The notes under the pieces were generated by a model, which was given only the letters and a program-made list of their open reading frames with translations, had not been told where the DNA came from and made no database searches. Below are positions 27,075 to 29,866 of a stretch of 31,263 nt of DNA, piece after piece; the first letter of the stretch is position 1, and each line of letters begins with the position of its first letter. Source of the stretch: a virus (Duplodnaviria > Heunggongvirae > Uroviricota > Caudoviricetes); the IMG/VR virus record IMGVR_UViG_2654587588_000015, positions 1 to 31,263 of that record. One strand, given 5' to 3'. A program made the translations under genes and the position numbers.

Positions 27075-27721
27075 TGGCGAAAAATGACTTTAAAGCGTTT
27101 GCAACGGATCGAAATGCCAATGTTATATCGCAGGAGGAATGGGAAGCGTTGCCCGCGCTTTTATCCGGATTTACAGCAGGGAAAGCCTCCAGTGCGCAAG
27201 TCAATAAGGTTATTCGGCAGGCCAGCTTTATTGCTGCAGCTCTGGCCCAGTTTGTAAGTGATAAAACGCAACGGGATGTGCTTGATAATGGTGATCTGCC
27301 CGGTTTTGTTGAATTGCTGGGATCGGGGTTTGCTGTTGAATACCTGAGCCGCAAGAATCCGTTTGGCGATATCAAATCGGATGGCACTGTGCAAACGGCT
27401 CTCGAAAACCTTGGTTTAAGAGCAAGCGGGCAGTACACCGATAATTTGTTATTTACAGGTCCTGATGGTCTTAAGATTCAGGTGTTTCGCCGGACGCTCG
27501 CAAATTTGACTACTGTCGGTGTAGTAAATTCTGTGCCAGTGACTTTCCCTGTCCCGTTCCCTGTTAATTGCTGGGGCGTTTTTTCTACCAAATTAACATG
27601 GGTTCAGATAACTAACTCATGCGAGTGGGTAAGCAATACAGGATTTACCGCTCAGGTCATGATGAATATTGCTGTAAATACAAACACCTCAGACGCTATG
27701 TTTTTAGCTATAGGATATTAA
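27056..27721 (+). CDS. Tail fibre protein (constant N-terminal part plus currently expressed variable C-terminal part)
   Basis: Typical fibre N-terminus [25 protein letters not shown]; crossover site lies inside the gene. Confidence 0.75.
   Translation: [221 protein letters not shown]
27399..27424. repeat. Invertase crossover site (gix/pix-like), left boundary of invertible segment
   Basis: CTCTCGAAAACC-TT-GGTTTAAGAGCA; inverted copy of the site at 29232-29257. Confidence 0.55.
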
Positions 27722-27722
27722 T

Positions 27723-28163
27723 ATGAATCGTTTTGTGTTCAGTCCATCTGAGTCCCGTTTTTATGCCATCGAGTGGCAGGCTGATTATGTTGATAATAAT
27801 TGTTGGCCGCATGATGCCATTAACGTTAGTGACAGCATTTATTATGAGTTTTCCGGCGCTCCCCCTACAGGTAAGCAACTTATAACTTTAAATAACATGC
27901 CATCATGGGGTGATATTCCTCCACCTACACGAGAAGAATTAATTGTCGCTGCTGATGTGGAGAAGCAAAAAAGAATAGATTTAGCCAATGATTACATGAA
28001 CGGTAAGCAATGGCCTGGTAAAGCAGCTATTGGTCGTCTGAAAGGTGAGGAACTGGCACAATATAATTTGTGGCTGGATTATCTGGACGCACTGGAGCTG
28101 GTCGATACTTCCGGTGCGCCAGATATTGAATGGCCTACGCCTCCGGCAGTTCAGGCCAGATGA
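27723..28163 (+). CDS. Tail fibre assembly protein
   Basis: Tfa-like N-terminus; C-terminal motif LDYLDAL...DTSGAPDIEWP shared with the minus-strand paralogue. Confidence 0.8.
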   Translation: MNRFVFSPSESRFYAIEWQADYVDNNCWPHDAINVSDSIYYEFSGAPPTGKQLITLNNMPSWGDIPPPTREELIVAADVEKQKRIDLANDYMNGKQWPGKAAIGRLKGEELAQYNLWLDYLDALELVDTSGAPDIEWPTPPAVQAR

Positions 28164-28740
28164 CGTCCGGCGCTGTGCTGGTATCTGTTGCCGTCACCGC
28201 GTCAATGTAATCCAGCACAGCGTTAAGCCGGGTTGTTTCTGCCTGCGTCAGCTTCCGCCCGGCCTGTAATTTCAGTTGAATCAGACTAATGGAAGCCATT
28301 GCAGCATCAATCAGTGACTGACGCTGTGCTTCTGCCGCTTCGACTGCTGCGCTATGCTGTGCCTCAGTATCGGTCACCCATTTCTCACCATCCCATTTAT
28401 CGTATGGCGTTAATGGAGCGATAGTGGTTGTATTTTCAGGGTAATCACCCGGAGCTGTGATTTCTTTTGATTCTCCTGTTTCAGTGCTATAGACCGTTTC
28501 ACCGCGATGGTCTGGCACATATTCCCATGAGTTAAAATCTGCAGAACGGCAAATTGCATAACCAGCTTTATATGAGCCAGGAGCATCTAAACAGGAACAT
28601 GCCGGGATACCGACACCCACAGCAAGATATTCAGTTGATGTGGAAATATATTCCCGTGTCTCACCATCATAATTGTAAACGGTAATGTCTCCCGCCTTTG
28701 TGGTGATGAGTTCGCTATTTAATACAGCTTTATTCATCAT
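28135..28740 (-). CDS. Alternative tail fibre assembly protein (inverted orientation)
   Basis: C-terminal motif LDYIDAV...DTSTAPDVIWP; convergent with the plus-strand tfa. Confidence 0.8.
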   Translation of the reverse strand: MMNKAVLNSELITTKAGDITVYNYDGETREYISTSTEYLAVGVGIPACSCLDAPGSYKAGYAICRSADFNSWEYVPDHRGETVYSTETGESKEITAPGDYPENTTTIAPLTPYDKWDGEKWVTDTEAQHSAAVEAAEAQRQSLIDAAMASISLIQLKLQAGRKLTQAETTRLNAVLDYIDAVTATDTSTAPDVIWPELPEA

Positions 28741-29244
28741 GCGGCCCTTACGATATAATTAAAAGCGATGTTACGAGGACGAGTTTCTGTACCTACATTT
28801 TCACTAATTTCACCATAACGTTTAACACTACGAGAGCTAGTAGCTCGTAGTGAGGAAGGCACATTAAGACCGGGTTCGTCCGTTTTAACTATTCCCCCGT
28901 CACCGTATGTAGCCAGTATTCCTGGGTTTACTCCTTCCCGTGCACTTCCTGCGGCGAGTCCGTCCCCTGTCCATAATTCCATATAGTGTGCATGGTCCAA
29001 AATTGTGTGTGGCTGCCAATTAAGCAAAGCGCGACCAGTATCAATCCCGCGACCGTCATCCCAGCCACGAATAAATTCACCGCGTAAATCAGGCAATTTA
29101 TTGGTCGGGTAAGCCTTTGCCAGTTCCGGGTATTCTTCAGCAGAAAAAGCCGCACCGTTGCATTTCAGCCAGCCTGTTGGCGGTGTGACTGAAGGCCACG
29201 GAACAGGCACACCAACAGGTAATGCAGAACCTTCTCCCAAACCA
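28737..29244 (-). CDS. Alternative tail fibre C-terminal cassette, silent in this orientation
   Basis: Open frame runs from crossover site 2 on the minus strand; in-phase with the fibre constant part after inversion. Confidence 0.65.
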
Positions 29245-29257
29245 ACGTTTATGAAAA
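29232..29257. repeat. Invertase crossover site (gix/pix-like), right boundary of invertible segment
   Basis: TTCTCCCAAACC-AA-CGTTTATGAAAA, resembles recalled gix/hix consensus. Confidence 0.55.
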
Positions 29258-29311
29258 TGCAGAAATAACGAGCAAATGGCATCATTCCTGCTTTTGTCAG
29301 GGAGATCTACC

Positions 29312-29866
29312 ATGCTTATTGGCTATGTACGTGTGTCAACAAATGACCAGAACACAGATCTACAACGTAATGCGCTGAACTGTGCAGGATGCGAGCTGAT
29401 TTTTGAAGACAAGATAAGCGGTACAAAGTCCGAAAGGCCGGGACTGAAAAAACTGCTCAGGACATTATCGGCAGGTGACACTCTGGTTGTCTGGAAGCTG
29501 GATCGGCTGGGGCGTAGTATGCGGCATCTGGTCATTCTGGTTGAGGAGTTGCGCGAACGTGGCGTTAATTTTCGCAGCCTGACGGATGCTATTGATACCA
29601 GCACACCGATGGGGCGTTTTTTCTTTCATGTGATGGGTGCCCTGGCTGAAATGGAACGAGAACTGATTGTTGAACGAACAAAAGCTGGACTGGAGGCTGC
29701 TCGCGCACAGGGACGAATTGGCGGTCGCCGTCCCAAACTTTCACCAGAACAATGGGCGCAGTCCGGGCGACTAATTGCATCAGGAGTTCCTCGCCAGAAG
29801 GTGGCGATCATTTATGATGTTGGCGTATCGACTTTGTATAAGAAGTTTCCAGTCGGAGATAAATGA
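29312..29866 (+). CDS. pin: Serine DNA invertase (Pin/Gin/Hin/Cin family)
   Basis: MLIGYVRVSTNDQ N-terminus with catalytic Ser region and C-terminal HTH; track ORF begins at an upstream in-frame ATG at 29276. Confidence 0.9.
   Translation: MLIGYVRVSTNDQNTDLQRNALNCAGCELIFEDKISGTKSERPGLKKLLRTLSAGDTLVVWKLDRLGRSMRHLVILVEELRERGVNFRSLTDAIDTSTPMGRFFFHVMGALAEMERELIVERTKAGLEAARAQGRIGGRRPKLSPEQWAQSGRLIASGVPRQKVAIIYDVGVSTLYKKFPVGDK

Follow-up and report, generated by a model that had tools for sequence, protein, structure and literature searches.

Does the tail-fibre region of this prophage constitute a working switch between two fibre tips, or only the remains of one? The locus lies near the right end of the virus record IMGVR_UViG_2654587588_000015 (Caudoviricetes), whose positions 1 to 31,263 were analysed as one stretch (hereafter, the window), and it comprises a tail-fibre gene, two genes for tail-fibre assembly chaperones (tfa), a second, oppositely oriented fibre end and the DNA invertase gene pin. 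The initial annotation, made from the sequence alone, had read it as an e14-like invertible tail-fibre segment of about 1.8 kb, and this proposal is supported by the crossover sites, the gene order, inversions found in natural isolates and an intact Pin. We are highly confident that the locus is an intact inversion switch of the Pin type (Hin/Gin/Cin/Pin), serving the part of a prophage tail fibre that binds the receptor. The anatomy of the segment, the intact state of its parts, its orthology with e14 and the natural inversion of near-identical cassettes at exactly these sites are all observed.

Anatomy of the invertible segment

27074-27410, plus strand: constant N-terminal part of the tail fibre, about 112 amino acids (aa); open reading frame (ORF), with the start taken from the annotation of homologues and a contig gene call
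27399-27424, no strand: left crossover site (pix/gix-like, 26 bp), CTCTCGAAAACC-TT-GGTTTAAGAGCA, core TT at 27411-27412
27413-27721, plus strand: variable fibre C-terminus A, Gp53-like_C domain (Pfam PF21882), now fused to the constant part
27723-28163, plus strand: tail-fibre assembly chaperone A (tfa A), 146 aa, Pfam Caudo_TAP E = 3e-26, partner of C-terminus A
28135-28737, minus strand: tail-fibre assembly chaperone B (tfa B, TfaE-like), 200 aa, Pfam Caudo_TAP E = 2.5e-33
28737-29243, minus strand: variable fibre C-terminus B, Phage Tail Collar domain (Pfam Collar E = 1e-14), silent in the present orientation
29232-29257, no strand: right crossover site (26 bp), TTCTCCCAAACC-AA-CGTTTATGAAAA, core AA at 29244-29245 on the plus strand (TT on the minus strand)
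29246-29285, minus strand: short leader with an ATG outside the invertible segment, from the ORF list

Between the two sites, ORFs and Pfam matches confirm the arrangement that had been described from the sequence, namely a fibre C-terminus and its tfa on the plus strand followed by another tfa and fibre C-terminus on the minus strand. The chaperones and the C-terminal cassettes are all full length, the two tfa genes are convergent with 3' ends that overlap by 29 bp, and the invertible length from core to core is 1,834 bp. C-terminus A is the expressed form, since it is currently fused to the constant part. Thirty-two complete E. coli genomes match it, 27 of them at 99.6-99.8% identity.

The likelier start of the fibre is the ATG at 27074, which overlaps in a TGATG with the stop of the DUF2612/Wedge1 gene before it; relatives are annotated in this way, and the gene call on the contig carrying the fibre gene also begins there. 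An alternative in-frame ATG lies upstream at 27056 and would lengthen the constant part to 118 aa. The initial annotation had given this last figure; its remark that the constant part is short stands, but the length is more likely about 112 aa. Such a short constant part is normal for an e14-type cassette, the StfP protein of e14 being 209 aa in total. The last 64 bp of the constant part (27347-27410) are a conserved adapter common to the window and e14 stfP.

When 27411-29245 is inverted in silico at the TT core, the result is an uninterrupted in-frame fibre of 281 aa counted from ATG 27074, the same length as the coding sequence annotated in E. coli O103:H2 12009. The fibre would thus measure 281 aa in the inverted state and measures 215 aa in the present one. 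The expectation that inversion joins the constant N-terminus in frame to the alternative C-terminus is borne out by this reconstruction and by natural junctions in other genomes. The leader, whose ATG is at 29285, makes the silent Collar cassette resemble a free-standing ORF (28737-29285, minus strand, 182 aa, StfE-like), and after inversion in silico it would head an ORF of 116 aa, StfE2-like in construction, with the gp53-like domain. Public annotations disagree here: RefSeq calls homologues of the 28737-29285 ORF a free-standing 'phage tail protein', while the equivalent in K-12 is the pseudogene stfE.

Crossover sites

The reverse complement of the right site reads TTTTCATAAACG-TT-GGTTTGGGAGAA, and in inverted orientation it agrees with the left site at 18 of 26 positions, both having a non-palindromic TT core. 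With a 9-nt seed, a generic search for inverted repeats overlooked the pair, since the two arms have no exact run in common longer than 7 nt (TTGGTTT). We therefore relied on a site model, a half-site position weight matrix (PWM) built only from the annotated P1 cixL and cixR and the Mu gix sites (G-segment boundaries), with which the whole window was scanned against a null of 300 first-order Markov random windows. The two sites rank first and second in the window with scores of 24.97 and 21.28 (the right site being the second), and the third-best position in the 31 kb scores 10.04, inside the random range. Maxima of the random windows averaged 12.5 (standard deviation 2.0) with none above 20.7, so that both sites exceed all 300. 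On these scores the sites are real and there are exactly two of them, no third crossover site having been found in the 31-kb window by the cix/gix scan.

The pair has the form recognized by Fis/enhancer-dependent invertases: two imperfectly palindromic 26-bp sites in inverted orientation with an identical asymmetric 2-bp core. The core occupies codon positions 2-3 in both reading frames, at 27411-27412 in the fibre ORF and at 29245-29244 in the minus-strand ORF. The right site contains CCTTCTCCCAAACCAA, the repeat that has been reported for e14 (PMC12529663), and the left site is identical at 26/26 positions to the left site of two dog isolates that differ from each other by inversion. Two inverted gix/hix-like sites at these positions, and the codon phase of their core, had both been proposed at the outset; the sequence, the PWM ranks and the identity with e14 establish the first, and the two ORFs establish the second.

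Natural inversion in relatives

The flipped left junction built in silico (constant part, Collar cassette and tfaE) occurs in one piece in E. coli O103:H2 12009 and O45:H2 FWSEC0003, at 99.0% identity over 1,466 bp, and in E. coli O55:H7 CB9615 at 97.6%. In all three genomes the window's 27983-29250 is matched on the opposite strand, with breakpoints inside both sites. A 184-bp query across the flipped junction is matched at 100% identity in other E. coli genomes. We took a census of junctions with two such 184-bp queries in 5,426 complete E. coli genomes, counting a genome where at least 80% of the query was covered, and found the flipped type in 572 genomes and the window type in 855. Of the same 5,426 genomes, 3,880 have DNA that matches some portion of the 3.2-kb region around the cassette.

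The clearest pair of orientations comes from the dog isolates Z1323PEC0011 and Z1323PEC0013, which carry an e14-like element with a gp53-like cassette 99.8% identical to that of the window and with crossover sites that agree with ours at 26/26 (left) and 25/26 (right) positions. Over 3,668 bp on either side these two isolates show 100% identity; their sole difference is a 1,829-bp inversion, and their recombinant sites have exactly the sequences that exchange at the core would produce. Similarly, O103:H2 strains 12009 and 129, which have the SEN34-like backbone, are 100% identical in the flanks and have 1,877 bp inverted between them. The gene pinE is annotated as frameshifted in both of these O103:H2 strains, and inversion in spite of this would imply either invertases acting in trans or a frameshift older than it looks. 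Finally, TUM17668 holds the window's own cassette pair in the flipped state, next to a truncated pin.

Pin and its enhancer

29312-29866, plus strand: pin, DNA invertase, 184 aa, serine recombinase with a C-terminal helix-turn-helix, Pfam Resolvase PF00239 E = 9e-52, HTH_7 PF02796 E = 5e-13
29330-29401, no strand: putative recombinational enhancer in the 5' end of pin (nt 19-90 of the gene, the position annotated as enhancer in P1 cin)

As stated in the initial annotation, a Pin-family invertase lies beside the right site. The protein is full length and 94.6% identical to K-12 PinE, its residues 1-181 align without gaps to the Gin structures 3UJ3 and 4M6F (E = 1e-92), and it has Y5, R7, the catalytic S9, R42 and D64; a mutated catalytic serine, which had been named beforehand as a sign of an inactive invertase, is therefore not what this Pin carries. 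Residues K46, K47, R50, Q150, R153 and L154 of Pin correspond to Hin 47, 48, 51, 151, 154 and 155, the numbering offset of one residue being taken from the alignment to the Hin DNA-binding domain 1HCR. In Hin, K47, K/R48, K/R51, Q151, R154 and L155 contact Fis and the enhancer and are uniquely conserved in Fis/enhancer-dependent invertases (PMC3798978).

Over the putative enhancer, 29330-29401, the window is identical to K-12 pinE at 70 of 72 positions and to P1 at 55 of 72. When pin, gin and cin are compared, invariant residues share the same codon most often within codons 1-36 (fraction 0.26-0.37, against 0-0.25 farther along), a modest signal of synonymous-site conservation that supports the placement of the enhancer without deciding it. 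If the Fis sites lie as in the hin enhancer, their centres would be at about 29341 and about 29389, 48 bp apart, and the proximal one presumably about 96 bp from the right core. This spacing fits Hin, in which about 100 bp separate the Fis-bound enhancer from the closest site (PMC3798978). Two Fis-binding sites are thus predicted near the 5' end of pin, about 100 bp from a crossover site, as in other enhancers of this class.

Proposed mechanism and points against it

Based on our results, we propose that transcription of the late operon would read through the constant part of about 112 aa into whichever promoterless cassette faces it, so that the present orientation gives the gp53-like C-terminus and the Tfa that belongs to it, and the inverted one the Collar-domain C-terminus and the TfaE-like chaperone. 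Pin dimers would bind the two 26-bp sites and, together with Fis on the enhancer in the 5' end of pin, form an invertasome that cuts at the TT core, rotates by 180 degrees and religates, so that 1,834 bp are flipped and the reading frame is kept. A population of lysogens would then release mixed virions with two adsorption specificities. In this scheme, dependence on Fis, a change of host range and an active switch in this strain itself are inferred.

Some observations weigh against an active switch. The window is a single assembled sequence with one orientation only, so that activity in this strain is presumptive. A consensus scan for promoters and terminators over 26300-30400 gave no pin promoter above chance (9 promoter-like sites, against 6.7 ± 3.0 in shuffled sequence), and against P1 and Mu the enhancer is only modestly better conserved than the remainder of pin (76% vs 70%). 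Furthermore, the combination of this constant part with the gp53-like tip is rare: the exact 215-aa fibre was found in only two contigs of a large assembly collection, one in GCA_001265185.1 (JHQY01000028.1) and one a Logan contig. The end of the Logan contig inside the invertible segment was considered as a hint of mixed orientation and set aside as uninformative, the break being where the 3' end of tfa becomes a multi-copy repeat. Nothing among these points is direct counter-evidence.

Relation to e14

The closest known system is e14, and the original comparison with its order stfP-tfaP-tfaE-stfE-pinE, with mcrA absent, agrees with what we find in gene order, in orientation and in the orthologous sites. 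Both elements run from the constant stf part through a site to the first C-terminus and its tfa, then through an inverted tfaE and second C-terminus to the other site and pin, with the same 29-bp overlap of the two tfa genes and a similar length, 1,797 bp in e14 (PMC12529663) and about 1.8 kb here. The right site is identical to that of K-12 e14 at 26/26 positions and the left at 23/26, and by this similarity the sites are orthologous to the e14 crossover sites. The tfa B product of the window is 94% identical to K-12 TfaE. Likeness is partial in the remaining cassettes: the Collar cassette is 59% identical to StfE overall, with a middle of the tip that differs, and tfa A is 55% identical to TfaP over the C-terminal 105 aa. 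It has been reported that over-production of PinE leads to 49% inversion of the e14 segment and that inversions of this P segment are found in 33% of 562 E. coli genome sequences (PMC12529663).

There are also clear differences between the window and e14. The fibre of the window and StfP have only a 24-aa adapter block in common; elsewhere, in the expressed gp53-like tip and over most of the constant part, their sequences are unrelated. At the DNA level, an island of 71 bp (27347-27417), which ends in the left site, agrees with K-12 e14 stfP at 100% identity, and the rest of the constant fibre part outside it has no DNA match to e14. This island looks like the left boundary of an exchangeable cassette. 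The baseplate protein of e14 is YmfQ (DUF2313), unlike the DUF2612/Wedge1 protein of the window, and e14 is integrated in icd with lit, intE, ymfQ and mcrA, whereas the window has no mcrA and is flanked by pphA-yebW. That the window could be the cryptic prophage e14 itself is ruled out by this flank, by the DUF2612 baseplate protein, by a SEN34-like structural module and by the missing mcrA.

Comparison with other inversion systems

As in the window, the G segment of Mu (Gin) and the C segment of P1 (Cin) place two alternative cassettes of C-terminus and chaperone behind a constant fibre N-terminus; their sites are likewise of 26 bp around a 2-bp core, and the enhancer lies within the gene for the invertase. 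The inner half of our left site, GGTTTAAGAGCA, agrees with GGTTTAAGAGAA of P1 at 11/12 positions, and the core is TT in both the window and P1 but TC in Mu. Differences are found in size, the segment measuring about 3 kb in Mu and 4.2 kb in P1 but just 1.8 kb in the window, whose fibres are also short (215 or 281 aa), and in the placement of the invertase gene, which faces the site with its 5' end in the window and in Mu, whereas in P1 the 3' end of cin faces cixL.

With the Hin/hix system of Salmonella the window has in common the invertase subclass, the 26-bp sites and the needs of the invertasome (PMC3798978), including the Fis and enhancer contact residues conserved in its Pin. The key distinction is that Hin flips a promoter, whereas the element described here swaps coding 3' ends behind a fixed 5' end. 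Min of p15B and the plasmid shufflons likewise produce alternative C-termini of adhesins or fibres by site-specific inversion, but with two sites only the window has two states and no combinatorial shuffling. A multi-site shufflon of the Min/p15B type was rejected as an explanation of the locus, there being no third site (third-best score 10.04).

Alternative explanations

We weighed four other accounts of the locus. It could be argued that the inverted repeat arose by chance and that the convergent fibre and tfa genes reflect nothing more than a duplication of modules, since the arms agree at so few positions (18/26) and the generic repeat search missed the pair; however, no random window among the 300 reaches either PWM score, the right site is the same as in e14 at every position and the breakpoints of natural inversions map onto these very sites, by which this account is already refuted and keeps practically no probability. 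The three others are compatible with the anatomy, although none of them is favoured over the classical switch. The segment could have come from an e14-like element by recombination and be structurally intact yet functionally frozen: without expression of pin, for instance, it would no longer flip in this lysogen. Such a state would agree with the single orientation in the window, with the lack of an above-chance promoter signal upstream of pin and with the decayed or locked relatives mentioned above (pin truncated in TUM17668 and frameshifted in O103:H2), but all five genes, both sites and the enhancer are intact, the cores match and near-identical cassettes flip in nature, which makes a frozen segment very unlikely in our view. 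More plausible, and a possibility to be kept in mind even if we do not think it the probable one, is that inversion is carried out mainly in trans by the invertases of other prophages (PinQ/PinR-type, Pin paralogues) and not by the adjacent pin. The O103:H2 strains 12009 and 129 are inverted relative to each other although the adjacent pinE is frameshifted in both, and PinQ, PinR and PinE are all reported to invert the P segment of e14, with PinQ dominant (PMC12529663). These findings favour trans-acting invertases as one contribution. Nevertheless, the pin of the window is intact and 94.6% identical to the active PinE, and inversion in trans would add to the classical explanation instead of replacing it; on other invertases in the genome the window is uninformative.

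The last account concerns the benefit of inversion rather than its mechanism. In the flipped state, the 116-aa StfE2-like protein with a gp53 domain that would start at ATG 29285 might block the adsorption of other phages, and host defence would then be the main pay-off of the switch. The in-silico inversion predicts this ORF, and StfE2 of e14, which has the same construction, is reported to block adsorption of T2 (PMC12529663). Against this, comparison with K-12 StfP detected no similarity in the gp53-like domain outside the 24-aa adapter, the consensus scan of 26300-30400 predicted no leftward promoter near 29285-29340, and the prophage has a complete structural module, for which a virion role of the fibre is the simpler reading; we consider defence as the main pay-off unlikely. 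A dual role, in which the classical tip switch is retained and the flipped-state 116-aa protein also shields the lysogen from unrelated phages, as reported for the defective e14 (PMC12529663), seems to us quite unlikely as well. If it were true, the fibre-switch module together with the cargo found after pin (mcrA, restriction-modification, retron) would form a combined hotspot for host range and defence.

Implications for annotation

Taking the locus as a classical Pin switch, we do not claim a new system: the e14/Pin switch has long been known and was revisited in 2025, RefSeq already names homologues pinE and tfaE, and the window is an ordinary intact copy in a different backbone, of little importance except for getting the annotation right. 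In a correct record, the fibre gene has a single constant part and two alternative 3' ends, and the minus-strand 'phage tail protein' ORF at 28737-29285 is a silent cassette instead of a gene in its own right. Isolates may show either orientation, and assemblies that disagree here need not be in error. The locus also shows that the e14-type cassette, from the 71-bp adapter through pin, moves as a module between unrelated tail backbones. Finally, the window represents an intact, probably inducible prophage in which the host-range role and the possible defence role of P-segment inversion could be tested, for which the defective e14 is unsuitable.

Prophage backbone and surroundings

The structural genes at 8600-26400 are 97.6% identical to the E. 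coli prophage records vB_EcoM-689R2, -606R2 and -611R5 and 82% identical to Salmonella phage SEN34, and to judge from these matches the backbone is that of a SEN34-like myovirus prophage beside pphA and not that of e14. Because the structural module is SEN34-like and the baseplate protein belongs to DUF2612, the e14-type cassette (adapter through pin) sits here in a different myovirus prophage. The 'vB_EcoM' records were rejected as proof of virion formation. One of them, ON470588.1 ('Escherichia phage vB_EcoM-611R5'), was deposited as a complete phage genome and has the host genes yfhH, yfhB and tadA inside, which identifies it as a prophage region and not packaged DNA; its DNA invertase is truncated to 315 nt.

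On the right, pin is followed by 460 non-coding bases and then by E. coli pphA and yebW (99.5% identity to E. coli genomes). The ryeA/ryeB small-RNA locus, a hotspot of prophage insertion near pphA, was sought in the right flank by an Rfam search; no match came up to the gathering score, and the idea was dropped. The slot downstream of pin (29867-30327) is empty and non-coding in the window, and relatives carry cargo of the defence type there: mcrA in K-12, a GIY-YIG protein, a DNA cytosine methyltransferase and a type II restriction endonuclease in Z1323PEC0011, and a DUF262 protein with a retron Ec67-type reverse transcriptase beside the truncated pin in TUM17668. At the other end of the window, three matches exceed the Rfam gathering score, namely the sok antitoxin RNA at 1744-1915 (106.7 bits), isrK at 4100-4173 (72.1 bits) and the C4 antisense RNA at 4200-4284 (72.8 bits), and they suggest a hok/sok-type module and an antisense immunity region in the style of P1/P7 in the early part of the prophage.

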